This document shows positions 10,528 to 39,653 of a stretch of 64,000 bases of DNA, one piece after another (positions within the stretch are counted from its first letter, which is position 1; the number at the start of each line of letters is the position of its first letter). A program made the position numbers and the translations under genes. The DNA is taken from contig OZ220744.1 of assembly GCA_965116925.1 (NCBI GenBank), positions 2,752,001 through 2,816,000 of the forward strand, written 5' to 3'. The notes beneath the pieces were generated by a model, which ran no database searches, was not told the DNA's origin, and worked only from the letters and a program-made list of their open reading frames with translations. This DNA comes from Candidatus Poribacteria bacterium (GTDB lineage Bacteria > Poribacteria > WGA-4E > PCPOR2b).

Positions 10528-13500
10528 TTAATCCGCTGGTGCGGGTTGAGCAGCCAGACCGCCAACGCCCGGAGCGTCTTCCGTCTCGCTCTCTTGCCGT
10601 CCACGCTCATGGAACTCACCGCGGATATCAGCACTGAACGTCCGCCAAATTAGTAGCTGTTTTCGGACAAGGTTCAAGAAACGACGGTTGACGCGCTTCC
10701 ATGAAGCAATCTCCCCGCTCTCACGGTGGACATCGAGGTGAATCTTATACAACTCTTCCTCTTCTCCGCCGACCGGTGAGGTGACAAGCCGAATGGATTG
10801 GCTGACTCCGAGATCGTAGGGGGCGAGCCACACCATCATGCTGATGTTGTAGGCTTCTTCCTCTTCCTCTTTCCCTTCCACTACCACAGGCGTTCGACCG
10901 AAGGCGACCTGATCCGTGTAGAAATCGCTTGCGGATTCGTCGGCGTGTGCTTCAAAGTAATCGCGCATAAAGATATTTAAGCCGAGCGATTCTTCTGCCA
11001 ACACGGTGAAGGGGAGATCGAAGTGCCACTCGTCGCCTTCAGGCTCCGGCAGCTGCCATTTCCGTTCGATGTCAGGCACCGCCATGCGACTGGCTTTAAT
11101 TGCAGGATACAGTGTACTTCCAATCACGACAATCATTACAATAATGGTTGCTACCACTGTTGACATTGACGAGTAGTTGAGGGTCAATCCAGCAAGCAAG
11201 CCAAAGTTGACAAGGACGGTTGCGACTGCCTGGCCGAGCAGGTAACCGAGCACAGCACCGACAATCGCATACACACACGCTTCCGCGAGGAACAGGAAGG
11301 CGATATGCACGGGAGCGAGTCCGACAGAACTGTAGATGCCGATTTCACGGACCCGTTCGTAGACCGCACCGAGCATCGTGTTCAGAACGATCAGCGACGC
11401 AATTAAAATTGGTATGAATAGGTTACCCATACCGGAGAAAGAGGTCATTCCGATGGAACTGTAGAGATAGGTGTCCCGATCTTTTCCAACAAAGAAGTCG
11501 AGTGCGATTCGGTTCATCAGCGGTGCCATGATCAGGTCCAGTTTATCTGCCGCACTGAAGATTGTTGGATCGCCGGGCTGTGCTTCCATGTTGACAGCGA
11601 CGGAGCGTAACGTCCCGCCCTGATTCATGACTACATCATACGGCAGGATAGCCACAGCATCGGGAGGTAGATGAATATATTTCTCCAACTCTCCTTCCAT
11701 GGCTTGGTTCTGTCCTTGGGCGCCACCGCCTCGCGCTTCCTGCTGCTGCATCAGTTGGTAGTCAACAGGTGTCAGTTCTTCGCCATCATTATCCTGTAAG
11801 TCTTTGAAGCCGATACCGAGAACACCCGTAACGGTGAAGTCTGCGCCGTATACGGATACAGTCGCTTTGCCCATATCGGCTTCGGTGATGCCGAGCAGAT
11901 CCGCCATACCTTTGGGGAGGACACAAGCATAGGGCCATTGTGTGGGCCACTCTGCTTCATCGTCGGGGTGATACCATCGACCATACTGGAGGTAACGGTC
12001 AATTCCTGTTACACCGGGTTCATCTTGACTCATCCCGACCAACATGGTAGCAGAGTAGGTCTTTGGCTGACCGGTGGTAGTATTGACAGGCGGTACAGGA
12101 TCTTGCAGGTTGGGGGTGCGCTCTAGCTGCACAAACGACTGATCGCCGGTGCCCGCGGACTGATACCATGCGCGTGGCGCGACGATGTTATGCACTCGGA
12201 GGACGGATTCTTCGCCCAGCTCAATCAACGATCCCTCCTGACGTAATTGGGCTATGATTGCTTCAACCTCTACGTCAGCCTGCTCTGCCGATTTACCTTG
12301 CTGCCCCAGTCGTTTCTTCAGCAGTAACCGTAGATCTTTTTCAGGGATTTGTGTTTTCCGCAGATCATTTGTGAGTGAGTTGACAACAGGTTCTTCGAGC
12401 GGATTCCAATACTGATCTCGGATAAGCATCCCGGTGTAGCGCGGCGTTACGGAAGGTAGGTTGGTGCTGTTGGGATGCATAAAGGTACGCACCGATGTAA
12501 AGGAGATGACCGTAAAGGTGAGAATAACCAGTGTGCTACAGGTGAGGATGGTGCGGCCCTTCCGCTTACGCATATTGGAAATACCTAGACTGAAAGCGGC
12601 AGCGGAGGCAGACAAGCGTCCCACGTCTGCCTTGTACACTTTTGATCCCTCCTGCTTAATTTTTTCCACCTGTTCTTCAAATTTCCGGACGATGATGCTG
12701 ATCACAATTGCCGTCAACGCAAGGACGACGAACGCAATCAGGATGATAACCGGCGTCGTGGTAATCTGGAATGCGGGGTGCACCTGCGCCAAGAAGAAAA
12801 AGACAACGAGGAAGATCGCAGCTGTCCCCATAATCTGTTTTTGGACGGTTGGGAAAGCGAATATCAACCGTTCCATGAAGTAGGCGAACGGGATCAGGAG
12901 GGCGAGATAGAACATCACACCATTGACTACGTCATTGCCGGTTTTCTTCACATCGGGGTAGGCGCGGGATTCGTATCCCCACGCGGCGCGGGCAAGTTTG
13001 AGTGCCTGCTGATAGTCTTTTTGGGTGAGGGCAGCCTCCGCCTGATTTAGATGTTCGTTGGCGAATTGGTGGAGCTGATCAAGCCGATCGCTGCTGATGC
13101 CGAACCGTTTATACAGACTCGCCCGGTTCTCATCGAGCCACCACATATCGCGGACGACAACGTATGGGGTTACGCGAATGCTACCGTTCTCGCGGACAAC
13201 AAACCCTTCTCCGGTATAGAGTGTCGGGTTCTTCGTTCCGCTTTTACTCGCCTTGATCAATAGTAACCGTTTGCCGATTTGTCCATACGCCATGCCGACC
13301 TTGATACGACTGTTAGGCTCCGAATAAACGAGCGCGATAGGCTCAGTTGCCGAGATACCTTCCTGCTGCCACGGCTTCGATACGCCATACTTTTCTGGTG
13401 GGCTATCGCTTGCGGCATCAAAAACTTCCAGTTCACGAAGCGTTCGTAGGTATCGCTGATCCACAAGATCGTAGATAGTGGTAGACACACAGGGGAAAAC

Positions 13501-16500
13501 CACGATACGGCATCCACGACGGTGGGTGTTAATCGGTATCAGGTTCGGCAAGAGTTTCGCGCCGAAGTTACCGAGATCCGGTGCGTAGACAATATCACCG
13601 GAATCCGGGTGGAGGATATAAGCTTCCACCTCTTGCGTTCCTTTGAGGCGGATGGTGGCACGCCCCTCCATCGCAAGTCCTGCAACCTCAAAGTTTCCTT
13701 TATTGTCGCCCATTGCAATGAGATCGCCTCGCACCCCCATCATGGTTTTGTGCTGATTCCGCAAAGCGAGAATAGGATACTCCACCGGTTTGTTTGGTAG
13801 CGCGCTCTCACGGGCATCATACTCGACGACATCACCAAACAGGTTGCAGTAGAAGTTCCCCACCCGTGCTGCGGTGGGCATCTTCGGATCGCGCATCGCT
13901 TGGATAAGAATAGCGGCAAGGGTTTTCGCCTGTTTATGCAAGGCACCATCGTGGCTCAAATCCATTCGGTCAATTGTGTCGAGCGGGGTATCGGTCAACA
14001 CGCGTGCATCGTCGATGGTGGCAAAAGCAATTCCGGTAAAGCCGGTCAGGGTTGCCACTTCGCTATCAAAGGCTATCTTACCAGGTATGTAGGTCTTCCA
14101 GATCTTACCGCCACTAGCAGAGATTGCGTTGACAAAGTTGGTCTCACCACCAAACCCGGCGATATCAATGAGTGCCTTAATATCATCGACTTCCTCTTGT
14201 GTAAATTCGGACGGGTCCTCGTGGCGCAGGGCAAGCATCGCATCCATTCGATTGAGCAGGCGCACCTTATTCTTCCGGTTCTTCCGCGCCTCCCGGATAT
14301 CGTTTCGGATGAATCGTTCGACTTCCTTACGGATATAGTCCATATCCTTGAGCATATCCTCGGAAGGTTCGCCCTGATTTTTCATCTGCTCAAACTGCAT
14401 CTTCATCAATCGAGACACTCCGGATAGCCCGACCAACGTTGCGTAATGCTCAGTAACTAAGCTTTCAAGGCTCTTGCCCTCGATGGCTTTTTTCGGATCG
14501 ATGCCAGCTGCAACTGTCCATTGAGTATTCATCACCGCTTGGCGGATCTGATCGTCGGTGAAGGTCCATAGTTTCTGGATACGTTCACCGAAATCGGCAC
14601 CCTCTGCGTATTCGGCAAGTTTATTTCCGATGGAAGCGAACTCGCGGCGGAGGACAAATTCGGGCTGCTGGTCATAGAACCACCCTTTGTTGAATACGCC
14701 AAACTGGTCGTTCTGGCTGGAGAGGTCAATGGCGATAAAGAGAGAGGTGTAGTAACGATTAAAGATGTCTTGCAGTGCAATCGCTTGTTCGATGGAACGT
14801 ATCTTCCGTGTGTATTCTGACTCGCTGATACGTGCAATTTTCTCGACCCGTTTTTGTAGATTGCGAAATCGAGCGTTCCGCATCGTGAGCAGGTTATCAC
14901 GGAGGAGAATCTTGGTCTCCTCGTCCGGATCGCGGTCAAGACGGTCAAGGATGTTCAGCAGGTTCTGGAGTTCGACAATATCGTTTTTGGCTCGCCGCTT
15001 CACCATCTCTAGTAGATGCTGTTCTTCAAGCTGACCGAAGATCTGCTCTCGGACAGCCATCGCTCGGTCTGCTGCATCTTCAGGGAGATAGTGGCGGAGG
15101 ACGAGTGCCTCTTCGGCGAGGTAGGGACGGTTCAGCGACGCATGGCGTTCAAGGAGGGATTCAATTCGATAGCGTTCAAGGCGAGCGTTCCGCATCGCGG
15201 TTTCGAGGATACTCTGTTTATCTCTGGTCAGGTCATCAACCAAAATTTGGTCTAATTCTCGTGAGGTTGCTGTTCCCGTTGTCGGGTCCATCATCTCCAA
15301 CTTCTGGTGGAGTTGAGTCTGAACAATCTCAAACTGCTTGAGGGTTGCCTCATTGAGGAAGAGTTCTAGCTCATCCGCAAAGCCTGCCGGGAGGTGATCC
15401 GGTTTAGAACTTAACTGGGTGATAGCGTTTTTGATACTATCCTCTGCATCGCTGCTTGCGGGAATATTGGCGAGCGTTCGTTCAAGGAGTTGCCGTTCTT
15501 CTTCGATGTAGGCTTCCAGAGATTTTTCAGCGCGGTTGACAACCCTACGAGCTGACTTGATTCGTTCCAAACCCTTAAAGTCAAGATGGCGGTCTAACAA
15601 CTTCTCTTGGGCATACTGGAGGGTGAATTTCCGTGGATCTTCAAATTCCCAGTCCTGCAAATTGTCCGAGAGTCGCTGAACATCTACCTCCAGATACGAC
15701 GGTAGGTCACTCGGTACTGGTAGATAATAACGTCCCCCCTCCCGTTCCTTCGGTACGAGATAGCTGCTGTCTGGCGTTTGTACATATTTCCCTTCAATCC
15801 GTTCTGCCCTTAAATCCGCTTCCAATTTATCTATTGCCCAAACGTCCAACCGAGCCATCGGTAGGGCAATCTGTTCAATCAATTCACGTTGGGTGTCACG
15901 GCATTCAGCTAATGCTTGTGTGCGCAGTTTTAGGGTACGGTTAAGCATTGAACGCAGGAATTGAGTGGTCTGCAGCGCGTCTTTCTTGAACTTCGCGAGG
16001 TTGACCTCTAGTCGTGATTTTTCCTCTTCGGTGAATCCTTGCTTCTCCCGTTTCTTGGTTGTTTCGAGTTTCTTCTTCTCTTTCTCTTTTGCGTCACGCT
16101 GGGCGTTACGCAACGAGTCAATGTTGCCTTTGGTTGTCTGTAGATCGGAGAGGGTTGTTGCTAGGGAGGCGACATCTGCTTTGAGTTCGTGGACATCGTG
16201 GAAGAAGTTAGGGGGTAAATCTACCAGCACATTTCGGTCGATCGATAGCAGTAGCTTACGTCCCAGTTCCTCAAACTCAAAGAGGTCGGTACTTAAACCG
16301 CGACGCAGCCCGCGCATTGTCGGTGTGCCGGGAGAATCCGCTTCTCGTCCGACGATATCTTGACCAATCCCCTCCATAAATGCGCGCATACCCCCCAGTC
16401 CTTGGAAGTGGGCATCTGTTGCGACAAACAGAAGGGAACGCCCCGGTCGAAATTCCTCTTGGCTGAAGATACGAGCAAGCTCCAACAGAGTGGCAATGCC

Positions 16501-17949
16501 GCCGGTGGGATCGGCACCGGGTGCCATTGCGGGAACGACAGACATTGAGTCGTAATAGCCGGTGATAACAACCAATTCGTCCTTTAGGGTTGGGTCGCCA
16601 CCTTCAAGGAAACCACGAATGTTCTGCCCAATACGCTGTTCCCAAGTAATGGTACTAGTGAGACGTGCGTAAATTTTCTGAGGAGACGATTCCGATTGTG
16701 CTTCCCCTTCGCCAAGCATAGCCAAGAGTTCGTCGGCGTCCTCTTTAGCAATCCAGAAGCGGGGGATGTTGGCAGGGACCGTCAGGAATTTGTTCTCAGC
16801 CTCACCGCGGATAGTTGTCTCCGGCTCGATGAAGAGGACAGCTTTCGCGCCAAGCATGGCGGCGTTAATCCATTTGGTACTAGAGTTGAAGTCAACCAGT
16901 ACAACGCTGCCTTGGGGGATAAAGATGCTGGATTCATAGGCGGCAACAAACTCGCCTTCTTCGTCAATTTGCCCATTGTTGTTGTTATCAATACCATCAG
17001 TTGCATCGCCGGGGATTTCGTCTACGAAGGCGTCACCATCGTTGTCGATGCCGTCGGTATCCCATTGCAAGATCTCAGTTAGTGGGGGAATCTCACCGTA
17101 TTCGTCGATCTGTCCGTCTTCATTGTTGTCAATACCATCTTGCGTCTTTTGGAGATGGCCGTTAAGCACATCGTCAGTGATGCTGCCGACACCGATACGG
17201 AAACGGTGGGCGAGGTCTTCCAAAGTATCGCCAGGTTCAACTTTGTGCCAGAAACCGCCGATATCTTTGCCGTTGAACGAGGAGAGTTCCCCACTTCCCC
17301 CATAAAAGAGGGGCGCGGTCAGTCCACCGGTGGGAATAAAGAGCGAGTTGCCTTCGACCAGCACTAACTCGCCCGGTTCGTCGATTTCACCATCATCATC
17401 GTTATCGCTGCCATCGGTTGCTTGGTCACGGAGGTATTGGTTATGCGGGTCAGCCAAGATAGCTTGTGGGTCAACTTGATAGGATTTAGCAATTCCGTCA
17501 AAGGTTTCGCCTTGAACGACTACATGCGAGACACCGTTGGGGAGGAAGGAGGTGCGAACAAGGTTGGGCCAGATTGACCAGATTCGGTAAGTCTTCAGAA
17601 GCGTTTGATCTTCGGAAAGAATTTCTACCTTTCCATCACCGTGATCTATTGGAACAGAAACGGGAAACTCACGGCTCTCAACGTTTTGTAAGCCGATCTC
17701 GACAAATTGGTCAAAGATGTACTTGCTGCCTGAAGCGGCTTCATCGTAACCGGTGACGCGGGTGGGCAGATTGGAGAGTCGAGCGATGTCTTTTCGCATT
17801 CGGCCGATATCGACTTTGTCACTGATTTTGACTGCAACCTCCGAAAGCCCGACAGACAGCTGTTCGTCAACAGCGAAACCGCCGTGTGGAGATAGTAGCG
17901 CGAGAATGCAGAGCCATAGACTGATGTAATAATATCTCTTGATGATCAT
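10528..17949 (-). CDS. Giant fusion: M28-like peptidase/PA domain, 2 LysM, acidic repeats, long helical insert and FtsX-type ABC permease (~2473 aa)
   Basis: Signal peptide; RVTG, ITGYYDS, PGAD and FVATDAHFQGL (M28-like); LysM-like HVVVQGETFDGIA and HKVEPGDTLEDLA; DGxDNxxDGxIDE repeats; FtsX motifs SNMRKRKGRT and VYERVREIGIYSSVG. ATG at 17949 has a GGAGG RBS. Confidence 0.85.
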   Translation of the reverse strand: MIIKRYYYISLWLCILALLSPHGGFAVDEQLSVGLSEVAVKISDKVDIGRMRKDIARLSNLPTRVTGYDEAASGSKYIFDQFVEIGLQNVESREFPVSVPIDHGDGKVEILSEDQTLLKTYRIWSIWPNLVRTSFLPNGVSHVVVQGETFDGIAKSYQVDPQAILADPHNQYLRDQATDGSDNDDDGEIDEPGELVLVEGNSLFIPTGGLTAPLFYGGSGELSSFNGKDIGGFWHKVEPGDTLEDLAHRFRIGVGSITDDVLNGHLQKTQDGIDNNEDGQIDEYGEIPPLTEILQWDTDGIDNDGDAFVDEIPGDATDGIDNNNNGQIDEEGEFVAAYESSIFIPQGSVVLVDFNSSTKWINAAMLGAKAVLFIEPETTIRGEAENKFLTVPANIPRFWIAKEDADELLAMLGEGEAQSESSPQKIYARLTSTITWEQRIGQNIRGFLEGGDPTLKDELVVITGYYDSMSVVPAMAPGADPTGGIATLLELARIFSQEEFRPGRSLLFVATDAHFQGLGGMRAFMEGIGQDIVGREADSPGTPTMRGLRRGLSTDLFEFEELGRKLLLSIDRNVLVDLPPNFFHDVHELKADVASLATTLSDLQTTKGNIDSLRNAQRDAKEKEKKKLETTKKREKQGFTEEEKSRLEVNLAKFKKDALQTTQFLRSMLNRTLKLRTQALAECRDTQRELIEQIALPMARLDVWAIDKLEADLRAERIEGKYVQTPDSSYLVPKEREGGRYYLPVPSDLPSYLEVDVQRLSDNLQDWEFEDPRKFTLQYAQEKLLDRHLDFKGLERIKSARRVVNRAEKSLEAYIEEERQLLERTLANIPASSDAEDSIKNAITQLSSKPDHLPAGFADELELFLNEATLKQFEIVQTQLHQKLEMMDPTTGTATSRELDQILVDDLTRDKQSILETAMRNARLERYRIESLLERHASLNRPYLAEEALVLRHYLPEDAADRAMAVREQIFGQLEEQHLLEMVKRRAKNDIVELQNLLNILDRLDRDPDEETKILLRDNLLTMRNARFRNLQKRVEKIARISESEYTRKIRSIEQAIALQDIFNRYYTSLFIAIDLSSQNDQFGVFNKGWFYDQQPEFVLRREFASIGNKLAEYAEGADFGERIQKLWTFTDDQIRQAVMNTQWTVAAGIDPKKAIEGKSLESLVTEHYATLVGLSGVSRLMKMQFEQMKNQGEPSEDMLKDMDYIRKEVERFIRNDIREARKNRKNKVRLLNRMDAMLALRHEDPSEFTQEEVDDIKALIDIAGFGGETNFVNAISASGGKIWKTYIPGKIAFDSEVATLTGFTGIAFATIDDARVLTDTPLDTIDRMDLSHDGALHKQAKTLAAILIQAMRDPKMPTAARVGNFYCNLFGDVVEYDARESALPNKPVEYPILALRNQHKTMMGVRGDLIAMGDNKGNFEVAGLAMEGRATIRLKGTQEVEAYILHPDSGDIVYAPDLGNFGAKLLPNLIPINTHRRGCRIVVFPCVSTTIYDLVDQRYLRTLRELEVFDAASDSPPEKYGVSKPWQQEGISATEPIALVYSEPNSRIKVGMAYGQIGKRLLLIKASKSGTKNPTLYTGEGFVVRENGSIRVTPYVVVRDMWWLDENRASLYKRFGISSDRLDQLHQFANEHLNQAEAALTQKDYQQALKLARAAWGYESRAYPDVKKTGNDVVNGVMFYLALLIPFAYFMERLIFAFPTVQKQIMGTAAIFLVVFFFLAQVHPAFQITTTPVIILIAFVVLALTAIVISIIVRKFEEQVEKIKQEGSKVYKADVGRLSASAAAFSLGISNMRKRKGRTILTCSTLVILTFTVISFTSVRTFMHPNSTNLPSVTPRYTGMLIRDQYWNPLEEPVVNSLTNDLRKTQIPEKDLRLLLKKRLGQQGKSAEQADVEVEAIIAQLRQEGSLIELGEESVLRVHNIVAPRAWYQSAGTGDQSFVQLERTPNLQDPVPPVNTTTGQPKTYSATMLVGMSQDEPGVTGIDRYLQYGRWYHPDDEAEWPTQWPYACVLPKGMADLLGITEADMGKATVSVYGADFTVTGVLGIGFKDLQDNDGEELTPVDYQLMQQQEARGGGAQGQNQAMEGELEKYIHLPPDAVAILPYDVVMNQGGTLRSVAVNMEAQPGDPTIFSAADKLDLIMAPLMNRIALDFFVGKDRDTYLYSSIGMTSFSGMGNLFIPILIASLIVLNTMLGAVYERVREIGIYSSVGLAPVHIAFLFLAEACVYAIVGAVLGYLLGQAVATVLVNFGLLAGLTLNYSSMSTVVATIIVMIVVIGSTLYPAIKASRMAVPDIERKWQLPEPEGDEWHFDLPFTVLAEESLGLNIFMRDYFEAHADESASDFYTDQVAFGRTPVVVEGKEEEEEAYNISMMVWLAPYDLGVSQSIRLVTSPVGGEEEELYKIHLDVHRESGEIASWKRVNRRFLNLVRKQLLIWRTFSADIRGEFHERGRQESETEDAPGVGGLAAQPAPAD

Positions 17950-18017
17950 GATAATTCCTCCGATTTTTTTAATAGGCTGACCGGCGCATAGTATGCTATT
18001 GTGTTTAGATCTGTCAG

Positions 18018-18046
18018 ATTCTATCATAGTCACAAAGTCTTGTCAA
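18018..18046 (-). promoter_or_regulatory. Sigma70 promoter of the transporter operon
   Basis: TTGACA-N17-TAGAAT on the minus strand; supports the 17949 start. Confidence 0.75.
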
Positions 18047-18298
18047 GATGCAAAACGGATCTAATTCACAAAAACATAAAACGTGATTGGTTCATTTATC
18101 ATGTTTTAGATTTCATTCATGGAATGCCGATAAAATCGGGGATGCAGGGCGTAACTTCTATCAATTTCGTTTTATACCTTGCATTGGGCGACGTAATATG
18201 TTAAAATGTGAATCACAATCGTTAGAAGGTGCAATAAACACGCTTTTCTGCGATCGTACACCGTTTTTTACCCTAACCCCATAAGGAGGTATGTGATT

Positions 18299-18637
18299 AT
18301 GTCTGTTTCAGTACGTATTAAGGAACGTCGTGATAAACTCGGAATGACACAAACACAACTCGCCAAATCGGCGAAGTTGACTCCCGCAGCGATTTCACAG
18401 TTTGAGTCCGGTGCCCGGAAACCGGCATTCGACACACTTTCGAGCCTTGCCGATGCGTTAAAAGTTACCACAGATTACCTGCTCGGCAAAAAGGCGCACG
18501 ACTACGACGACCTTCTGGCGGATCCGAAGGTTAGTGTTATGTTTAGAGGTATCATGGACCTTTCTGAGGAAGATAAGGAGACGCTGATCGAGTTCTACCA
18601 ATTTCTTAAAGATAAAAACGGCAAAAACACGCAGTAA
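18299..18637 (+). CDS. XRE-family HTH transcriptional regulator
   Basis: MTQTQLA...ISQFESGARKP...LADALKVTTDYLLG; AAGGAGG RBS. Confidence 0.92.
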   Translation: MSVSVRIKERRDKLGMTQTQLAKSAKLTPAAISQFESGARKPAFDTLSSLADALKVTTDYLLGKKAHDYDDLLADPKVSVMFRGIMDLSEEDKETLIEFYQFLKDKNGKNTQ

Positions 18638-18665
18638 CACAATTTGATGGATCTGCTGCTTTGAC

Positions 18666-19553
18666 ATGAACCAGAGATCGTCCCAAAAACATCAGATTGC
18701 AGAACAGGTGTCCTCCAAACCCGCTCTAGAACCTGCCGAGGGTGCGCGACAGTTGTTGCGTGAACTAAATGTTCAGGACATCCCGATTCAACCGCGAAAT
18801 ATTGCAGAACAGTTGCAAATCGTCGTCTGGGAACGGGAGATGGAAAGCCAGTACGATGGCTGCTTAATGCGGGTTGGCGATACGTGGGGCATTCTGCTCA
18901 ACAATCTGATTCAATCAGAGTCCCGAAAGAACTTTACAATCGCTCACGAACTGGGGCATTACTACTTGGATGGGGGACAAACTGAGAGGCAAAATTTCGC
19001 TACAGATGCAAAGAACAGAGCGGCGGAATTTGCCCCTCAGCACCGTTGTCAGCGCGAAGATTTGCGTGGATTTGATTCGCACCAATTGGAAGAGCAACGT
19101 GCCAATCAGTTCGCAGTTGAGCTGCTGATGCCCTCTCCCATTTTTCGAGCGGACGCTACCGATCTGCCTAAAATCGGGTTGACGGCGATTGATACCCTCA
19201 CTGCCAAATATTCTACCTCTTTGACCAGCACGGCTATTCGCTACACACGCTTGAGTCCGCATGTTTGTGCGATTGTGCTGTCTGAGCGGGGGCAGATTAA
19301 ATACTTTGCTTATTCAGATGGCTTTCGTCAGAATAGTGATTGCTATCTCGCGAAAAATAAGCCCCTCCATCCCGACTCGGTCGCAGCCCTGCTTGACAAA
19401 GGTAAATCGAAAGAGGTGAAAGAACACCAGCGGAAAGTTCCGTTGTCCCATTGGTGTTCGACGCAATCGGATCAACCCCTCGTCGAGCAATCCCGCCGAT
19501 TGCCCCGCATGAATCAGGTGCTCTCGTTTCTTTGGTTGCCGGACGGGGCGTGA
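18666..19553 (+). CDS. ImmA/IrrE-family metallo-endopeptidase
   Basis: RKNFTIAHELGH, E..ANQFAVELLMP, then an HTH-like segment and a C-terminal domain resembling a GAF fold. Confidence 0.9.
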   Translation: MNQRSSQKHQIAEQVSSKPALEPAEGARQLLRELNVQDIPIQPRNIAEQLQIVVWEREMESQYDGCLMRVGDTWGILLNNLIQSESRKNFTIAHELGHYYLDGGQTERQNFATDAKNRAAEFAPQHRCQREDLRGFDSHQLEEQRANQFAVELLMPSPIFRADATDLPKIGLTAIDTLTAKYSTSLTSTAIRYTRLSPHVCAIVLSERGQIKYFAYSDGFRQNSDCYLAKNKPLHPDSVAALLDKGKSKEVKEHQRKVPLSHWCSTQSDQPLVEQSRRLPRMNQVLSFLWLPDGA

Positions 19554-19660
19554 AACGTGAATAATCGCCTGCCTGTAGGTCGAGTTTCTGTACTCGACAT
19601 CGACTCAGTTAGTTCATTAGTTCATTGATGATAGAGCCCATCAGAAAACTTAACGGGGCA

Positions 19661-19691
19661 CAAAAAAGGGGTGCATCCGAAGATACACCCC
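19661..19691 (-). terminator. Intrinsic terminator after the 443-aa gene
   Basis: GGGGTGTATC-TTCG-GATGCACCCC-TTTTTT on the minus strand. Confidence 0.75.
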
Positions 19692-19712
19692 TAGTCTATG
19701 AAGCATTTGCTC

Positions 19713-21044
19713 CTATTGTTCCGCTTCCCCGCCATCAGGCGTGTCGCGGGAAGGAGGCGTCCCGCTTGCAGGACGGTCGGGAGGGTGCGGCTCAAATTGC
19801 CGAGCCGCGTCAGGATCAGACTCCCGCAGACGACGAAGCCCCTCCTCTGTGCCGTATTGGTCTATCAACCGTTGCGCCTTATCAGCAGGATTAGTTGATA
19901 GTCCTTCAATCAAATCCGATCCAATCCCCTGTGGTGTCAACTGTTTTTCGAGATCTGCTACACTTTGAGGGGATATAGGCTTGACTATATCGGGAAGATC
20001 TGATGGAGAGACAGGAACATCAGAGCGAACCGGGGCACCATTGGCATTTTCATTGATGCTTCCCTCAGAAAAAGGGTCTGTTGCTGAATAGTCCCCACCG
20101 AATTCTGTTTCGCTACTTCCTGACGGGAGGGTGCCCTCTAATTTTCGCATCCACCCCGGTAGTGCGTCTTCAGCGATATCAGACAGCAACCGCACCTTCA
20201 CCGGCGGTTTATCAGACTGCCCCGGTTTGGCAAAAGAGTTTAATATACGTCCTCTTTCCTTCATTGCCAGATTGTTGTCGACATTCTCTTTTGCTCTTGC
20301 CGATAACGACACATCAATTTCGCCCTTTGCTATCTTTGCCTCAATCTCCGCCATCGAGATCTTTAATTGTTTACTGAGCCAGACCTTTTTTATGAACTCT
20401 TGACGTTCATAGGGATCTTTTATCGCATAGTATTCATCGGGTATCGGTTCGCCTGCTACCTCAACACGCGCTGGGTGCTGGTCCTGCTCAAATGCTTCTA
20501 AAATCGGCGGGTCCAACTCTGACGGTAATATCGCGTCCCCTTCCTCGTACTGCCTGTCGTGCGGGACAATCACGTTATGCAGTTGACCGTCAGGAGTTAC
20601 GATTCGCTGGACAACCTGACCTTTATAGGGCGAGTTCTCAGCGAGCCTTTTTAGATGTTTCTTGACATAAGGGTTTTTTTTACCCGTTATCTCCCACGCT
20701 TGCAGTTCTATATCCTCACGATCAAAAGGCACAGGTGTATAGATATACGTCCCAGCTACCATATAGACATACTCATCGCCCCGTTTCCCCTTGTAATAGG
20801 GGTTCGTGGTATCCGCCGTTGTGCTTGGGTCTGGATTTCCGCCCCCATGGGTATGCCCTTCGGTTAGATGGTCATGCCCATCTGTTTCTGTATGTTTAAC
20901 AGAACGATTAAACGCCTGAGTGGACGATATAAAATGCTCGAATGCAACATGCTTCTGGTATTCTCTATAACCGATGTAGCAGACCAACAGTAACGCAATC
21001 AGACCCACCACAACGAGATAAGGAGTAAAACGGTAATTCAACAT
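19713..21044 (-). CDS. Hypothetical membrane-anchored protein (443 aa), cassette A partner
   Basis: One N-terminal TM helix, a His-rich stretch and an acidic/Pro-rich C-terminus; GAGGAGG RBS. Confidence 0.75.
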   Translation of the reverse strand: MLNYRFTPYLVVVGLIALLLVCYIGYREYQKHVAFEHFISSTQAFNRSVKHTETDGHDHLTEGHTHGGGNPDPSTTADTTNPYYKGKRGDEYVYMVAGTYIYTPVPFDREDIELQAWEITGKKNPYVKKHLKRLAENSPYKGQVVQRIVTPDGQLHNVIVPHDRQYEEGDAILPSELDPPILEAFEQDQHPARVEVAGEPIPDEYYAIKDPYERQEFIKKVWLSKQLKISMAEIEAKIAKGEIDVSLSARAKENVDNNLAMKERGRILNSFAKPGQSDKPPVKVRLLSDIAEDALPGWMRKLEGTLPSGSSETEFGGDYSATDPFSEGSINENANGAPVRSDVPVSPSDLPDIVKPISPQSVADLEKQLTPQGIGSDLIEGLSTNPADKAQRLIDQYGTEEGLRRLRESDPDAARQFEPHPPDRPASGTPPSRDTPDGGEAEQ

Positions 21045-21122
21045 AGTAAAAACCTCCTCAATAGTTATGAGTCAGGACGAGGTTAACCGCCTGCCCCAAC
21101 CCACACGCTCATACGGATTCAC

Positions 21123-21497
21123 CTAACCTCCGCAGCTTGAATTGGAACACGTTACCGAATCAATGCGCCAATAATACCGCCCCCATTTTATACTATTCCA
21201 ATGGAAGTGTGTTAACTCACCAGTTATTAAGTGATAGGTGTTTGTTACATTCCAGCACTCCTCTCTGACGCGGGTTCGATGGATTGTGGTCGAACTTCCA
21301 CAATACGAGCAAGTGCCACTGATCGTATCCGATGACATATCTTTCCACTTGTATTTGTGACCAGACTCACTATACTCTAACCACCCTTGGTCAGCCTCAG
21401 CTCTCTCAGGTTGAAAACCAGCATATATCCCCAAACCAACTACCAATACCCCAACAATCAACAACGAAACTTTCAACTGTCCTTTTGCTGCAAACAT
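21123..21497 (-). CDS. Small secreted Cys/Trp-rich protein (124 aa), cassette A
   Basis: MFAAK start after GGGAG; signal peptide ending AEA; CSYC and C-terminal CSNSSC. Confidence 0.7.
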   Translation of the reverse strand: MFAAKGQLKVSLLIVGVLVVGLGIYAGFQPERAEADQGWLEYSESGHKYKWKDMSSDTISGTCSYCGSSTTIHRTRVREECWNVTNTYHLITGELTHFHWNSIKWGRYYWRIDSVTCSNSSCGG

Positions 21498-21528
21498 GGT
21501 AAATCTCCCTATTACCATAGTTCCGGCC

Positions 21529-21578
21529 AAAAACAAAAAGGGGCTGCGCCCTCAAATCGCGCAGCCCCTTTTTGTTTT
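21529..21578 (-). terminator. Leader terminator (attenuator) upstream of cassette A
   Basis: GGGGCTGCGC-GATTTGAGG-GCGCAGCCCC-TTTTTGTTTTT, ~30 nt before the ATG. Confidence 0.75.
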
Positions 21579-21645
21579 AAGTTGAAACTAATAGTTTAAT
21601 AAGGGTATACTATAAACAATTGTTAGGTGTTCATCCTAACAATGG

Positions 21646-21720
21646 CGAAGCGACTCGAGGTCGTGTCTCGTTTTGCTTCAGGGGGCTTCGAGCTGGACCT
21701 CGGAGCTCCCACAACTACCC
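21646..21720 (-). ncRNA. Conserved structured leader RNA, copy A
   Basis: Two hairpins shared with 23221-23287 and 24544-24610; starts just downstream of a consensus promoter. Confidence 0.6.
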
Positions 21721-21749
21721 ATTCTATACCATCTTGAAAAATCTGTCAA
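21721..21749 (-). promoter_or_regulatory. Sigma70 promoter of cassette A
   Basis: TTGACA-N17-TAGAAT on the minus strand. Confidence 0.75.
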
Positions 21750-21785
21750 CACTTTTTTTCTTAAAATCAACAATTTGCTGAGATT

Positions 21786-23051
21786 ATGGCAAAACCTTTT
21801 CGCGTTGCCGCTATCGTAACCACCTTTTTTCCGAACAGTCATGCCGGGGTGATAGTTCCCAAATTCCTGCGTGGCTTTCCCACCGACGATGGACTGATTG
21901 CGCCGCGTACCCAGCTCGCGTCACTCTTCATTGACCAGATCCATCAAAATGATGTTGGGCGGCAGATCGCTCACGAATACGATATCCCCATCTACGAGAG
22001 CATTCGTGCCGCGCTCACGCTCGGCGGCGATAGTCTGGCTGTGGATGCGGTGCTGCTCATCGGTGAGCACGGGGACTACCCACGCTCTGTACTGGGTCAG
22101 GAGATGCTGCCGCGGCGATATTTCTTTGAGCAGATCTGCGGCGTTATTGCGGAGTCGGATCGCCCCATTCCTATCTACAACGACAAGCATCTGTCCTACC
22201 GTTGGGATGATGCTCACTGGATGTACACAACCGCCACGCAGCTGGACATACCGCTCTGGGCGGGATCGGCGTTGCCGGTGGGTTGGCGGTGCCCGAACTT
22301 TGAGCATCCGTTGGGCGCACCAATCGAGGAAGCGTTGTCCATCGGGTTTCACATGATTGAACGGTACGGTTTTCATGCGCTGGAAAGCCTACAGTGTCAG
22401 GTGGAACGGCGACAGGGAGGCGAAACGGGTGTCTGTGCGGTGCAATGTTTGTCCGGTGATGCGGTTTGGCGCGCTGCCGATGAGGGACGATGGTCGTTTG
22501 AACTTGCTAACCATGCCCTCGGTACGATTGAAGACGGGCCCAAATCCCTCGATCCGTCGCAGGTCGAAGATCCACACGTCTTCTTGATTGAGTATAGCGA
22601 TGGGTTGAAAGGTGCGGCGTTGATGCTTGGCGATAACGGCTATGTGCGGAAGTTCGCCTACGCAGCCAAGCGTGGAGAAGTCATTGATGCAATGGAATAC
22701 CACACCGATTCGGGGGCGACCCATGCGGTTTTCAGCTATATGGGGCTGAATATTGAGGACTTCTTCCTGAGCGGTGTCCCGCCCAGTCCGGTTGAGCGAA
22801 CCTATCTGACGACTGGCATCTTGGAGGCGGTGATGCGCTCCCACGGCAGCGGTGGCTCACAGATCGAAACCCCGCACTTGGCTATAGGTTATACGGCTAC
22901 TGAATCCCAACTTCGACGACCCACTAGCACTCGCCCAACCGGTGCGTCCCTTTCGGCGTGGGAGATGCCGGAGCCGGGTGCCACTCCCGCTGCGGATTTG
23001 ATTCCTATCGGGCGCGATGGGACAATTCGGGGGCGTCGGCGTTTCAACTAG
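21786..23051 (+). CDS. Conserved hypothetical protein, possibly a Gfo/Idh/MocA-like oxidoreductase
   Basis: 421 aa; VDAVLLIGEHGDYP, YNDKHLS, YGFHALE and PVERTYLTTG motifs. Confidence 0.7.
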   Translation: MAKPFRVAAIVTTFFPNSHAGVIVPKFLRGFPTDDGLIAPRTQLASLFIDQIHQNDVGRQIAHEYDIPIYESIRAALTLGGDSLAVDAVLLIGEHGDYPRSVLGQEMLPRRYFFEQICGVIAESDRPIPIYNDKHLSYRWDDAHWMYTTATQLDIPLWAGSALPVGWRCPNFEHPLGAPIEEALSIGFHMIERYGFHALESLQCQVERRQGGETGVCAVQCLSGDAVWRAADEGRWSFELANHALGTIEDGPKSLDPSQVEDPHVFLIEYSDGLKGAALMLGDNGYVRKFAYAAKRGEVIDAMEYHTDSGATHAVFSYMGLNIEDFFLSGVPPSPVERTYLTTGILEAVMRSHGSGGSQIETPHLAIGYTATESQLRRPTSTRPTGASLSAWEMPEPGATPAADLIPIGRDGTIRGRRRFN

Positions 23052-23220
23052 GTTCTGTTGACATTTTATATTGATGCACCTACAACAGTATTTTGGGCAG
23101 GCACAAGCCCCCGATGAATCGGGATTAAGAAACCTGCCCCTACATTACATCGAATGACCCGAGCCAGCCCCGTCCACACTTTCTGATTGTATATTCGAGC
23201 GTTTCTGCTATTTATACACT

Positions 23221-23287
23221 CGAAGCGATTCGAGGACCCGCTCGGATCGTTTCACGGGGTCGGGAGGTGTCAGCTCCCAACCCCACC
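23221..23287 (-). ncRNA. Conserved structured leader RNA, copy B (orphan)
   Basis: GGGGTTGGGAG-CTGACAC-CTCCCGACCCC followed by TGAAACGATCCGAG-CGGGTC-CTCGAATCGCTTCG. Confidence 0.6.
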
Positions 23288-23294
23288 ATTTTTT

Positions 23295-24002
23295 TCAAGG
23301 TTCAGCCCACCCGTTTTCACGTAACATCTCCAACAACAGGGTATAGCCCTGATCCTTCAATTCAGGGTTTTGGGCATACAACACTTGCACCGCTGGCGGC
23401 GCAGCATTGCCCATCTGCGATTTGACTTCTGCTAAAAAATCACGCTGATCCTCTGCAGATAACGTATTGAGATGATCGACAATCATCGGGATCGCTTGAT
23501 TCATCGTCTGCAGCACTCGCTTGCGGACCACCGCTGCATCTTCGAGCGCTGCTTCCGTTTTGGCTGCCATTTCCTCTAGCTCCGCAAGGGATTGCTCAAA
23601 AGCAGCCGTATCGGCTGCAGTAGACGCCGAAACCGATGCTTTGTCGGGTTCAACTTCGCTCACAATTGGATCTAACAAGCCATCCGTATCCGATACGAGT
23701 GGATCCACCGCTTCATCAATTGGACGATGCGAAACGCTATCCGTCGATTCGACCGGTGGCGTCGTGCGCTCGTTCAGGATTGCCCGCCGTTCCGATGGAT
23801 CCGGTAGCAGATAGACCCGCTCCGACTCGACCGACTTCGACGGGCGCACATAAGCGAAATATACCACCCACGAAATGATCAGCGTCAAAACTACGACAAT
23901 CCCTAACCCGATGAACAGTGGCGACCGAAGCTCTTTCAGATACTCCCGCCACGATCGCCAGCCCTTGCCTGTCCGATCTCGCCAGTCGTAAAAAATCGGC
24001 AT
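23295..24002 (-). CDS. Hypothetical membrane-anchored protein (235 aa), cassette C partner
   Basis: One N-terminal TM helix, an acidic linker and a helical C-terminus; AAAGGAGG RBS. Confidence 0.75.
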   Translation of the reverse strand: MPIFYDWRDRTGKGWRSWREYLKELRSPLFIGLGIVVVLTLIISWVVYFAYVRPSKSVESERVYLLPDPSERRAILNERTTPPVESTDSVSHRPIDEAVDPLVSDTDGLLDPIVSEVEPDKASVSASTAADTAAFEQSLAELEEMAAKTEAALEDAAVVRKRVLQTMNQAIPMIVDHLNTLSAEDQRDFLAEVKSQMGNAAPPAVQVLYAQNPELKDQGYTLLLEMLRENGWAEP

Positions 24003-24020
24003 TTGAAACCTCCTTTAAGA

Positions 24021-24395
24021 CTATCCTGCACCCTGACGCTGCATGCACTCCCAATACTCCTGATCAGCGACAATGGCTTGAAGCATCGCCGCAGCCAAAG
24101 CCGCCTCCGCAGCCAAAAGAAAACCGAACGCAACCGCAATCGCAATCGGGTTTGCAGACGCGATCGCGGCAACTAAAGCGCCCTCCGCAGCAATGACCGC
24201 GACCAGTGCGGCTGCCTGCCATGCGAGCGCTACATTCAACGCATTGCGCTCCGATTGACAGACCTGTGCGATCGCTTCGACTGCCAAAAACGCCATAACA
24301 CATAACAGAATAACGCTGATTAACCGTAACAGGTTCCGATTCAACCTAAACGTAGGGACAGTGATTTGTGGTACGGGTAAAGCAAACGCAAACAT
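24021..24395 (-). CDS. Small secreted Ala-rich hydrophobic protein (124 aa), cassette C
   Basis: MFAFA start after GGGAG; signal peptide ending AIA; mature part has Cys near both ends around a long hydrophobic core. Confidence 0.7.
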   Translation of the reverse strand: MFAFALPVPQITVPTFRLNRNLLRLISVILLCVMAFLAVEAIAQVCQSERNALNVALAWQAAALVAVIAAEGALVAAIASANPIAIAVAFGFLLAAEAALAAAMLQAIVADQEYWECMQRQGAG

Positions 24396-24431
24396 AACAA
24401 AATCTCCCAACCGCCACCGGAAGCCACAAAC

Positions 24432-24466
24432 AAAAAAAGGCTGCGTCGTCACGAATCGCGCAGCCC
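24432..24466 (-). terminator. Leader terminator (attenuator) upstream of cassette C
   Basis: GGCTGCG-CGATTCGTGACGA-CGCAGCC-TTTTTTT; homologous to 21529-21578. Confidence 0.75.
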
Positions 24467-24543
24467 TAAGAAGTTTGTTGCCAAGCCAGTTGGCGTGATA
24501 GGTTGTGGGTTGACCGTCGGCATATTTTCCGACGACCGAAATT

Positions 24544-24610
24544 GGGCGATTCGAGGATCTGCTCGGGTTGCTTCAGGGAGGTGCGGAGGTATCAGCTCCA
24601 AGTCTCCCAC
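24544..24610 (-). ncRNA. Conserved structured leader RNA, copy C
   Basis: GGGAGACTTGGAG-CTGATAC-CTCCGCACCTCCC followed by TGAAGCAACCCGAG-CAGATC-CTCGAATCGC. Confidence 0.6.
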
Positions 24611-24724
24611 TTTATCTAAGGCGCAATTGACATGCCAAAAGTGACAATAATCGCACAAAGCCAGTCACCATCGAGCTTTCAACGCGAAATGTTAAAAAAG
24701 TCGTTGAAGTGATTAACCCAATTA

Positions 24725-24774
24725 TTAGCAACAGTTGCTAAGCAATAGTTGCTAACGTTAGCAACAGTTGCCAA
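24725..24774. repeat. Three tandem copies of the palindrome TTAGCAAC-A-GTTGCTAA
   Basis: Read directly at 24725, 24739 and 24758. Confidence 0.7.
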
Positions 24775-25068
24775 CCTTCTCGCAGACACCAACAGACTTA
24801 AAAAGCTGCGCGAAGTACACGGAGCATTTTATTATGACTTATCCCGACAAAAAGATAGGGAGTTATTAAAGTATTTTAACCAACTCAAACCAGAAACAGT
24901 CAAAGGCAAGCGTTTCGTGAACACAAAAAAGCGGTATCATGCCAGGGAATGAAACGACGCTTTAACATCTGATTCACCTCCTTGAGGGAGGTTTTCAGCA
25001 GGAGCGAATTCAGGAGTAGTGGGAGCGTAGGTGGGTTCCACACTCCCACTGACCCTACTTTGCGAAGA

Positions 25069-28018
<2,950 letters not shown>

Positions 28019-28020
28019 TT

Positions 28021-28190
28021 TATAGTGAATTCAAAAAATAAAGAAACAGTTGCGCCACCCGGTAGGTGCGGTTTGTAACCGCACCGCATCGGCGCAGTTA
28101 GAAACAGCGCCTACCAAACAGAAGAACGGTCGTTTCATTTTCCTAACCGCACCGGTTTGGCGTGTCCCATTAATTCTAAAATCTACTATA
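28021..28190. mobile_element. MITE-like element with a REP interior (second copy at 60895-61002)
   Basis: Ends TATAGTGAATTCAAAAAATAAAGAAACA and TTAATTCTAAAATCTACTATA are identical in both copies and form an imperfect inverted repeat. Confidence 0.7.
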
Positions 28191-28237
28191 ATCACCGAAT
28201 ATGTTAGATGTCAGGATTCGGAGATCCCTCCTACAGT

Positions 28238-28681
28238 TTATTCAAGAGGTCTTTTCATCTGAAAATGTGTTGCGTTTTCATCGACGATTGTGAATCCTAG
28301 TCTTTGGTAGAAGGCGGTAGCACGGGTGTTAATTTTTAGCACCTGAAGCGTCACAGGTTTTTGTTCACGGTTGGCATCCTCGATAATGCGCTTCATGCAC
28401 GCCGCCCCGATTCCTTTGCCTTGGTGCTCAGGCAGGATATAGAGTTGGTCAACCTTGAACGTGTCAGGGGTGTTCCGCGTTGACAAGAAACCGACGTCAG
28501 TGCCGTGCAACTGGATGATGCGAATCCCCTGTGAATCGAACCGCCTATTGTGCAGATCTCTTTGATAGGTGTCATCCCAGCCCCAGATCTGCTCCACATA
28601 TTCTCGGAACGCTGCTTTCTTAACGGCAAAAACAAATTCGCGGTCAGTTGCCTCTGCCTTGCGAATGCTCAACGCTTCCAT
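28238..28681 (-). CDS. GNAT-family N-acetyltransferase
   Basis: YILPEHQGKGIG and NTRATAFYQRLGF. Confidence 0.92.
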   Translation of the reverse strand: MEALSIRKAEATDREFVFAVKKAAFREYVEQIWGWDDTYQRDLHNRRFDSQGIRIIQLHGTDVGFLSTRNTPDTFKVDQLYILPEHQGKGIGAACMKRIIEDANREQKPVTLQVLKINTRATAFYQRLGFTIVDENATHFQMKRPLE

Positions 28682-28690
28682 CCAAGACCT

Positions 28691-29086
28691 CTATGTTCCC
28701 CCGCAGGGAAATTTATGCAAGCCATCGGGGATCTTAGACCATGGGACTGCCATTTCGGTCCAGATTTCTCGTGTGGGTCGTAGATCCTCAGAATTGTCTA
28801 GGGTGCCCGCCTTGATGAACACCAAGTCGGGGTAACGTGTAAACAATTGCGAACCACATTCCGGGCAGAATTCACGACTCTTTGTGAGGCCCTCATCATT
28901 CGTAGATTCGTATCCCTTAGTTTTACCGCTCAGTCGAAACGTGCTCGTTGGCACCCTAACTCCGACGTTGAACGCGCTGCCTGTGACTCGACGACAGTCA
29001 TCACAGTGGCAATAGGTCACAGACAGGGGTTCCGATTCGCTTGTATAGCTGACCGCCCCACAAAGACATCGACCTGTTAACGGCAT
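28691..29086 (-). CDS. GFA/CENP-V family protein
   Basis: GRCLCGAV, CHCDDCRR and FCPECGS. Confidence 0.92.
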   Translation of the reverse strand: MPLTGRCLCGAVSYTSESEPLSVTYCHCDDCRRVTGSAFNVGVRVPTSTFRLSGKTKGYESTNDEGLTKSREFCPECGSQLFTRYPDLVFIKAGTLDNSEDLRPTREIWTEMAVPWSKIPDGLHKFPCGGT

Positions 29087-29142
29087 TGGCAGCCTACCTT
29101 TCCAGATAGTTGGGTGCATCAATTCAAAAGGTTGAACCTATA

Positions 29143-29559
29143 TCAACTTCGTTCGGTCGCACACGTCGGACACAAGCCGTACAACTCTAGTTTGTATCCC
29201 TTCACTTCAAATCCCCGCGCTTTGAACTGCTGCGTATTAAGCGGTTCGGAGAGCGGTGCGTCAACATCAAGTAACCGATCACAACCTGTACAGATCAGGT
29301 GGTGATGGTCTGTGAGGTTTGCGTCAAAGCGCGCATATTCGCCATGCTCCACCTTCCGAATCAGACCGAGTTCGACCAACACGCTTAATCCCCGATAGAC
29401 AGTGCCCAAGCTGATGTGTGGCAGACGAACCTTTACCGCATCATAAACCTCTTTCGCGCTTGGGTGGTGTTGCTGCTCTCGCACCTCTTCAAGGATAATC
29501 TGGCGTTGACGGGTAAATCGATAGCCTTCTTGCCTGAGCCCTTCGCTTAACTCTTTCAT
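29143..29559 (-). CDS. Fur-family regulator, PerR-like
   Basis: TRQR, HPSA, ISLGTVYR, RFD, HHHLICTGC and CPTC; upstream of katG on the same strand. Confidence 0.92.
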   Translation of the reverse strand: MKELSEGLRQEGYRFTRQRQIILEEVREQQHHPSAKEVYDAVKVRLPHISLGTVYRGLSVLVELGLIRKVEHGEYARFDANLTDHHHLICTGCDRLLDVDAPLSEPLNTQQFKARGFEVKGYKLELYGLCPTCATERS

Positions 29560-39063: not shown

Positions 39064-39653
39064 GGGGGTGAAAAGGTTTCGACGAGAGTAGATGATGTAA
39101 AGGTTGCATGCCGAGGTCTCCGCAGGCCTCGTTAAACAGGCGGAAACAATTTAATTGCCGATGAAGAATTGGCTCTAGCTGCTTAATAAAAGCGGCTCGT
39201 CCGGCTAATTTGCGGTCCCGTCGAGTTAGCCCGACGTCAACAAACGGGCTGTGCGCCTTACTTGTTCTCAAGGGGCATGGCGCGAGATTTAACTTGAGAT
39301 AGTCCGCAGCGAATCCGGCATAAGGGAGTCCTATGGACGAAACACCAAAGCTTATGCTAAGCATGTAGTAGCCTTTATTGAAATGCTCTCGGACGCGGGT
39401 TCGATCAGTCTGGTCGACTTGGAGGGCAACCTCCTCGATTAAACTTGGCTTACATCGGTGAAACCTAAGAGATGGCGACATCTTATGGCAACACCGAGGG
39501 ATTGTATGGTCCTGTAGAGACTGTAATGATAGGAGATAATGTCAACGACAAATCTAGATCTCCTATAACACGCTAGGCTCCACCATTTTGGGTGGATGAA
39601 GATATAGTCCACGCCTCTGGGAAACCGGGGGGTCACGTGTCCCGCCACCTCCA
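39064..39653 (+). ncRNA. ssrA: tmRNA, intron-interrupted (exons 39064-39405 and 39640-39653)
   Basis: 5' GGGGGTGAAAAGGTTTCGAC; tag reading frame ADEELALAA* at 39157-39186; acceptor stem GGGGGTG/CACCTCC-A with the G3.U wobble; downstream of smpB. Confidence 0.95.
39406..39639 (+). ncRNA. Group I intron (234 nt, no ORF) in the tmRNA T-loop
   Basis: 5' exon ends in U paired to G in P1; R element GAGACTGTA and S element AAGATATAGTCC; P4 CGGTG/CACCG; GNRA-capped P2, P5 and P9; terminal G. Splicing restores GCGGG-TTCGATT-CCCGC. Confidence 0.92.

Follow-up and report, generated by a model that had tools for sequence, protein, structure and literature searches.

The window analysed here comprises 64,000 nucleotides (nt) from the chromosome of a Candidatus Poribacteria bacterium (contig OZ220744.1, positions 2,752,001 to 2,816,000), and positions below are counted within it. 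It carries three minus-strand copies of a structured leader RNA element, at 21646-21720 (A), 23221-23287 (B) and 24544-24610 (C). All three lie where the original prediction, a note based on the sequence alone, had placed a candidate riboswitch or attenuator. However, the size of about 70 nt given there must be corrected to about 190 nt. The full unit presents, in this order, a promoter, the hairpins P1 and P2, an optional P3, a linker, a terminator and a ribosome-binding site (RBS). Copy A precedes a peptide gene and a partner gene and, judged from its sequence, appears to be a complete switch. Its features are the following (promoter scores out of 12; lengths in base pairs, bp, and amino acids, aa).

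21721..21749, minus strand: sense sigma-70 promoter, TTGACA-17-TAGAAT, 11/12; predicted start at about 21714
21681..21710, no strand assigned: hairpin P1 with variable loop, -15.5 sense versus -22.2 kcal/mol antisense
21646..21680, no strand assigned: hairpin P2, -10.4 sense versus -14.9 kcal/mol antisense
21650..21659, minus strand: putative pre-emptor, the 3' strand of P2, pairing with the terminator by complementarity and folding
21619..21643, no strand assigned: hairpin P3, two-sided change in 5/9 pairs
21582..21611, plus strand: antisense sigma-70 promoter, TTGAAA-18-TATACT, 10/12
21618..21715, plus strand: predicted antisense RNA of about 100 nt with three hairpins, -47.2 versus -35.9 kcal/mol for the opposite strand
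21534..21568, minus strand: intrinsic terminator, with the pre-emptor target at 21551-21560
21514..21595, minus strand: extended hairpin of about 35 bp around the terminator, ending 4 nt before the RBS
21123..21497, minus strand: gene for a 124-aa secreted Cys-containing peptide (unit A), RBS 21504-21509
19713..21044, minus strand: gene for a 443-aa N-terminally membrane-anchored partner, then a terminator at 19692-19667
21786..23051, plus strand: 421-aa gene without known family, pointing away from A and towards B

The family was analysed as 82 distinct copies from 71 sources, which are most, not all, of the matches listed. These copies are related by kinship, and all counts below refer to non-independent events. 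The window copies exceed chance (nhmmer E 1e-13 to 1e-17) by construction, because they built the model. Four further genomic copies, kept outside model building, gave E 1e-9 to 2e-5. In total, the genome itself (6.47 Mb, a single-contig chromosome) contains seven copies and a 3' half copy near 2,220,300. BLAST detects the element in 17/19 other genomes of the same genus and in 0/21 others. A sense-strand covariance model finds it in 23/61 genomes, and an antisense-strand model in 30/150 Poribacteria genomes, distributed over four genera and three families. In a pattern search, 65 of the 80 genome matches listed belong to Candidatus Poribacteria. Those outside the phylum (the other 15, together with 24 viral and 2 metagenome matches) reach at most 20 bits and were treated as chance.

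We ran the Rfam check proposed with the original prediction, including the Poribacteria-1 motif. At the gathering score, the scan of the window returned only the transfer-messenger RNA (tmRNA). At E<=10, the region 21000-25100 gave 14 terminator-type matches, all at chance level, and eight diverged loci gave none. Poribacteria-1 (RF03113) resembles our element in phylum and in length (107 positions), but its covariance model has no match at E<=1 anywhere in this genome. No curated aptamer model was obtained from these scans, in agreement with the earlier remark that the element could not be matched to a validated riboswitch class. Likewise, we found no description of it in the literature, a coverage that leaves outside the supplement of PMC5737381 and subscription journals; the main text of PMC5737381 does not mention Poribacteria. 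The element is real and uncatalogued, and it is present in sponge-type Poribacteria.

Copy A follows directly after TTGACA-N17-TAGAAT, as had been noted, and this promoter is located at 21749-21721. On the other hand, the earlier description of hairpin 1 as GGAG/CTCC type fails for copy A, which has CGAG/CTCG. Across the family, a sense sigma-70 promoter of at least 9/12 is present within 75 nt in 54/82 copies. In copy C and several array-internal copies, its place is taken by a sigma-54-type motif. The transcription start also bears on a ribosome-mediated attenuator, in which a leader peptide would control termination. Short open frames do run through P2 in some copies. Nevertheless, there is no conserved start codon, RBS or frame, and the sigma-70 copies start transcription at P1, which leaves no room for an RBS. 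This explanation is extremely improbable.

Homologous terminators follow A (21568-21534) and C (24465-24432) directly before the RBS and ATG, and in most copies a terminator lies between the leader and the start codon; it is absent in B and L066. The complementarity between the 3' strand of P2 and the terminator is present as predicted, over 10 bp in A and 8 bp in C. Of 20,000 random 130-nt stretches of the genome, 0.2% contain a comparable 10-bp complement. More precisely, the 3' strand of P2 faces the terminator 5' arm and loop over 10 bp, and 651 of 670 cells are paired in the 67 copies (of 82) that could be parsed by pattern. This helix contains 62 G.U and 16 A.C cells, a bias towards the sense strand. 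Among the 15 unparsed copies, six belong to a subtype whose terminator is different. They present a new pairing of 10-11 bp from the P2 loop, in a shifted register, at -21 to -24 kcal/mol.

Folding distinguishes three states. First, P2 forms early (median probability 0.98). Second, once the 5' part of the terminator has emerged, the antiterminator exceeds 0.5 in 47/68 copies. Third, at full length the terminator wins by a median of 10.6 kcal/mol. Because of these three states, the models suggest that the default is kinetically ON, and that whatever occupies the P2 strand would turn the switch OFF. The paired cells and the folding states uphold the original prediction of a cis-regulatory leader with a terminator/antiterminator switch. 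In these models P2 would be an anti-antiterminator on the sense RNA, and its helix is fuller on the antisense RNA. A further inner helix of the antiterminator, between the linker and the terminator 5' arm, was weak and inconsistent and was rejected.

The hairpin of about 35 bp that encloses the terminator is also conserved, ending just before the RBS in most copies, and it favours the sense strand in 58/73. According to the models, it would form only after read-through. It may then free the RBS or be an RNase III site.

The conserved linker between hairpin 3 and the terminator resembles, on the opposite strand, a sigma-70 promoter, a feature that the original prediction missed. It scores at least 9/12 in 72/82 copies and at least 10/12 in 53, with a spacer of 17 in 65 copies and of 18 in 7. 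The full consensus TTGACA appears in 7 copies and TATAAT in 2. A shuffle test per copy gave p mostly <=0.05. The scan demands A2 and T6, so these two positions do not count as evidence. The predicted RNA starts about 100 nt downstream of the sense start, or about 70 nt where P3 is missing (P3 is optional in the family, and several copies lack it). It covers P3, P2 and P1, including the pre-emptor, and reaches neither the terminator nor the RBS. A promoter motif placed so that its RNA would cover the pre-emptor is found in A, and in neither B nor C.

The hairpins themselves show on which strand they are conserved. In 35 aligned copies, the in-register cells of P1 and P2 comprise 111 A.C (G.U on the antisense strand) against 10 sense G.U; by columns (25 in total), A.C occurs in 19 and sense G.U in 9. 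P2 is more stable as antisense in 77/77 copies, and P1 in 72/77. The median shuffle z is -7.2 for antisense and -4.3 for sense, with the antisense value lower in 74/78. From one alignment of 32 diverse copies, the consensus energy is -31.75 kcal/mol antisense versus -6.16 sense. In the antisense fold 12/22 pairs covary, and 0/500 shuffles reach as high. L242, a diverged copy from another genus that was outside the models, keeps 9/10 pairs with the same antisense bias (-9.0 versus -25.5). The parts outside the antisense RNA, which are the antiterminator helix and the long terminator hairpin, have the opposite, sense-ward bias. This opposite bias serves within the element as a control against a mere effect of composition. 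The pairing, both promoter motifs and the structural strand bias are all direct results of the sequence analysis, and the hairpins P1-P2 appear to be conserved for the antisense strand. Folding predicts a stably structured antisense RNA of 70-140 nt with exposed loops, as in attenuators of the pT181/pIP501 type. A U-tract follows antisense P1 in B, C, L093:6608, L069 and L079.

The same signals can be read as a convergent-promoter or small-RNA module that works by promoter interference, duplex-triggered decay or other targets, and not by attenuation. In that case the terminator would work constitutively, with leakage, and the 10-bp match would be left over from an inverted duplication. The antisense structure and promoter are indeed the strongest signals, the covariation of the antiterminator is statistically weak, and the same complement makes up a simple adjacent hairpin in L078. 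However, 97% of cells preserve the match, in contrast to the free variation of the neighbouring loops. Its frequent variants can still pair as G.U on the sense strand, and where the terminator has changed, a second register has arisen. We consider this alternative unlikely.

We propose instead that the element is a cis-encoded antisense-RNA transcription attenuator, with a probability of about 0.68. Transcription from the sense promoter (sigma-70, in some copies sigma-54) would give a leader with the hairpins P1, P2 and usually P3. As the 5' part of the terminator becomes available, the 3' strand of P2, the pre-emptor, would pair with it over 10 bp. The terminator could not close, and the peptide and partner genes would be transcribed (ON). 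The second promoter, inside the leader and facing the first about 100 bp away, would produce a stable RNA of three hairpins that is complementary to P1-P3 and binds the nascent leader, probably by loop-loop contact. In this way it would occupy the pre-emptor and allow the terminator to form (OFF). The two facing promoters probably also interfere with each other and so strengthen the effect. We infer from the sequence that both RNAs are made and that their binding causes termination. As a guess, competition between the promoters could give a threshold or bistable output that varies from cell to cell.

The loops of P1 and P2 are the most variable positions of the element, while the P2 stems and internal loop are nearly invariant. 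About 40 different sequences occur at each of the two loops, and the family comprises more than 80 natural variants on conserved scaffolds. Variable loops on fixed stems are what antisense attenuation leads us to expect, because the sense and antisense loops are the same DNA and change together. Full duplexes between paralogous copies are stable. The complementary loop triplets described earlier are literally present in A, B and C, but they occur no more than by chance across the family. The intramolecular kissing loop suggested by them did not survive a permutation of 67 distinct loop pairs (p=0.32 with Watson-Crick pairs, 0.55 with G.U), in which loop complementarity equals that of permuted pairs. 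It is therefore not supported and was rejected. One P2 loop (L2) sequence is combined with seven different P1 loops (L1), so the loops re-assort freely. The triplets of A, B and C are best taken as chance, although a kissing signal may exist in the three B/C-type copies. ANTAR-target dual hairpins have hexaloops with conserved A1/G4. In our loops A1/G4 is not conserved, and a search of the genome for ANTAR proteins gave no match, with the positive controls equally silent.

These loops also bear on a ligand-sensing riboswitch or a protein-bound attenuator, where a metabolite or protein would stabilise the sense P2 and let the terminator form. The three folding states fit such an OFF switch. A binder may contact the nearly invariant P2 internal loop, and the B/C-type copies have a terminator and pre-emptor with no recognisable antisense promoter. 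In contrast, the loops are hypervariable, re-assort freely and give no kissing signal. The structure is conserved for the other strand, the downstream genes have no common metabolic theme, Rfam has no match, and the internal promoter is left unexplained. The aptamer in the original prediction is weakened by the same two facts, the variable loops and the conservation for the opposite strand, and a sensor of this kind is quite unlikely. T-box-like and attC-like readings were dropped by eye.

Several observations weigh against antisense attenuation. An antisense promoter of at least 9/12 is lacking in B, C and eight other copies among the 82 scanned. Outside the focal genus, seven new loci with a usable match have none at this level, and L224, a near-identical A-type copy, is the only new locus there that has one. 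Most distant relatives also differ in architecture. The majority of A-type copies lack a U-tract behind antisense P1, which leaves the RNA without a defined 3' end; in copy A it may extend into the divergent 421-aa gene that starts at 21786. An arm of the long terminator hairpin includes the antisense -35 and spacer, and this overlap could contribute to their conservation. In 21/68 copies the antiterminator is not even transiently favoured. Its covariation is weak, with p 0.06-0.12 when partners are swapped among 16 distinct pairs. In the loop-pair comparison we saw no selection for private loops within a genome: both loops are identical in 4/192 within-genome pairs and in 18/2811 between-genome pairs. 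RNA sequencing runs matched only 5% of the sequence words, all of them in contigs from other strains. Finally, YUNR loops do not characterise the family (6-13 of 40-42 loops).

The closest known systems are pT181 RNAI/repC and pIP501 RNAIII/repR. They share with our element an antisense promoter in the leader, a pre-emptor, convergent transcription and an intrinsic terminator just before the translation start, as described in parts of PMC5703833. There, the 87-nt RNAI of pT181 acts where a pre-emptor pairs with the terminator 5' arm, and antisense attenuation is reported for pIP501 too. Both are single plasmid copy-number controls of a Rep initiator, with CopR in pIP501 (PMC5703833, same parts). 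The Poribacteria element, as predicted from its sequence, differs in being chromosomal, with up to about a dozen copies per genome, a cargo of secreted peptides and membrane-anchored partners, and no sequence similarity. By analogy it would work like these systems without being a member of their families. The pT181/Inc18 copy-control family proper was rejected on three grounds: no Rep domain in 98 downstream proteins, a single-contig chromosome and no Rfam match.

In Enterococcus faecalis, Anti-Q/prgQ of pCF10 has promoters that face each other, a small antisense RNA by which termination in the 5' leader is increased, switch-like output and an export-related cargo, according to sections of PMC3181467. 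It differs by its conjugative plasmid, single copy, 223-nt overlap and control by PrgX and pheromone (sections of PMC3181467), whereas no repressor is linked to the Poribacteria element. Shigella RnaG/icsA, outside the Firmicutes, has convergent promoters 120 bp apart, attenuation with transcriptional interference and a surface-protein target (excerpts of PMC2879508). However, the same excerpts describe a 450-nt RNA at a single locus of a virulence plasmid, and a terminator that arises by refolding within the paired region, not by pre-emptor release of a downstream terminator (PMC2879508).

A type I toxin-antitoxin assignment was rejected because the first genes mostly encode 80-150 aa with signal peptides and the predicted antisense RNA lies off the RBS. 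Ibs proteins are tiny toxins controlled after transcription; the Poribacteria products are 80-150-aa signal-peptide proteins behind a putative terminator switch. The E. coli Sib/ibs system does resemble our element in its several chromosomal paralogous sense/antisense pairs with cognate-specific repression, and Salmonella IbsA measures 19 aa (parts of PMC2943612).

For antisense attenuation as a mechanism, the relevant passage of PMC5415839 lists only pT181 and pIP501. The antisense attenuators of pT181, pIP501, pCF10 and Shigella are all plasmid-borne in the parts of the papers cited, and the scheme is known mainly from plasmids. In pT181, mutations of the first hairpin change specificity, and the dearth of natural transcriptional attenuators is called a central roadblock for RNA circuit design (passages of PMC3753616). 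The more than 80 natural variants found here offer a ready test set for sense-antisense kissing specificity and a possible source of orthogonal parts. There is also a lesson of method. What looks like a riboswitch can be an antisense switch, and the two can be told apart by the strand on which the G.U pairs lie.

Copies B and C depart from A. Their features are listed below.

23190..23295, no strand assigned: copy B, 5' remnant with P1 23256-23284 and P2 23221-23254, without terminator or antisense promoter
24480..24608, no strand assigned: copy C leader with P1 24576-24608, P2 24546-24575, P3 24512-24537 and P4 24480-24494
24432..24465, minus strand: terminator of copy C, homologous to that of copy A
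24623..24638, minus strand: sigma-54-type promoter, GG-N10-GC, ahead of copy C (two sigma-54 genes in the genome)
24725..24774, no strand assigned: three 17-nt palindromes, in a module that recurs at five further genome places
24021..24395, minus strand: gene for a 124-aa small exported/hydrophobic protein (unit C), RBS 24403-24408
23295..24002, minus strand: open reading frame for a 235-aa membrane-anchored partner (unit C)

In copy B, P1 is followed on the plus strand by U7, which is terminator-like. At the place of copy B, genome G002 has a full leader (L093:6608), and in that genome the genes of unit C follow an A-type leader at the opposite flank of the 421-aa gene. By this sequence comparison, copy B appears to retain only the 5' half of the leader, which G002 has in full at that position.

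Copy C seems from its sequence to be a divergent subtype under a sigma-54 promoter; we take the GG-N10-GC motif to be of this type by its usual consensus. The palindromes are probably enhancer-protein sites of the sigma-54 module. This module of about 170 bp (24611-24860, minus strand) unites the three palindromes and the promoter. Three of its five further places are near other peptide/partner-type genes, and no attenuator lies directly behind any of the five. The pre-emptor of copy C (24546-24555) lies within P2. No recognisable sigma-70 antisense promoter is present (best 6/12). Its P2 is poor as sense (-4.3 kcal/mol) and a perfect helix as antisense (-15.8), so copy C may have lost the antisense promoter or may be controlled in trans.

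The commonest cargo is a signal-peptide protein of 80-150 aa, frequently rich in Cys, which differs at almost every site; the gene for a membrane-anchored partner of 235-450 aa comes next. Some leaders precede other, often exported, proteins such as lipoproteins and a GMC oxidoreductase. The latter, with an N-terminal export-type signal, stands behind one leader clade (L002, L094, L100, L017, L030, L031) in several genomes. We found no function for the cargo. Pfam gave matches at E<=0.001 in 9/98 scanned proteins, apart from one weak domain of unknown function, and Atlas searches of the cargo proteins were blank. The 124-aa peptide of unit A has no match in Pfam or Atlas, and the 443-aa partner has no significant Pfam match. 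A structure model of the partner (predicted local distance difference test 66, best Z 5.5) has no informative fold. Its homologues number at least 294, and among the 120 listed there is no Pfam or functional name. Otherwise divergent partners (19713-21044 and homologues, A7, A8) have in common a short C-terminal helical motif starting YG(T/P)EEGLRRL.

The 421-aa gene is syntenic in G002, G004 and G015. In G004 and G015 the cargo at this A site consists of other peptides, and 19544-21786 or 19691-25074 is missing from contigs of other strains. For these two reasons, the cassettes are accessory and shuffled, probably by recombination between similar leaders. The element could be a repeated DNA junction, a recombination site or operator array that spread with the cassettes and involves no RNA switch. 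Tandem arrays of leader-peptide-partner units, orthologous sites with different cargo and swapped leaders, the absence of the whole block from other strains and palindromic cores that recur about 32 bp apart agree with it. Nevertheless, strand-specific G.U patterns, two-sided covariation and a fixed orientation between promoter and RBS are unexpected of a DNA site, and recombination is better seen as a by-product of homology. We regard this explanation as very unlikely.

Returning to the antisense-RNA attenuator, each secreted-peptide cassette could have its own, or a family-wide cross-talking, bistable RNA on/off switch, with the leaders doubling as homology blocks for shuffling. This extension is doubtful. 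If true, the sponge symbiont would display no more than a part of its hypervariable exported peptides at any moment. It would be an RNA-only system resembling antigenic variation, and a natural library of dozens of loop-coded attenuators. The element also points to control of a large unannotated repertoire of secreted Cys-rich peptides in an uncultured sponge-symbiont lineage.

Four loci from another family (L236, L237, L238, L240) have the P1-P2 core with a different 3' architecture. In L237 and L240, a long complement to P2 lies about 75-110 nt downstream, beyond a U-tract. Upstream of unit C are katG and a gene for a Fur/PerR-family regulator (25069-29559, minus strand), and in this strain the insertion of the cassette block separates katG from its terminator. 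Genes for an XRE-type helix-turn-helix protein and an IrrE/ImmA M78 peptidase (18293-19553, plus strand) converge on unit A and are syntenic in G002. In the tmRNA gene (39072-39407, plus strand), the terminal acceptor-stem columns are gaps in the Rfam alignment. Finally, an open reading frame of 2501 aa (10528-18033, minus strand) shows peptidase-like and permease-like stretches, as judged by eye.

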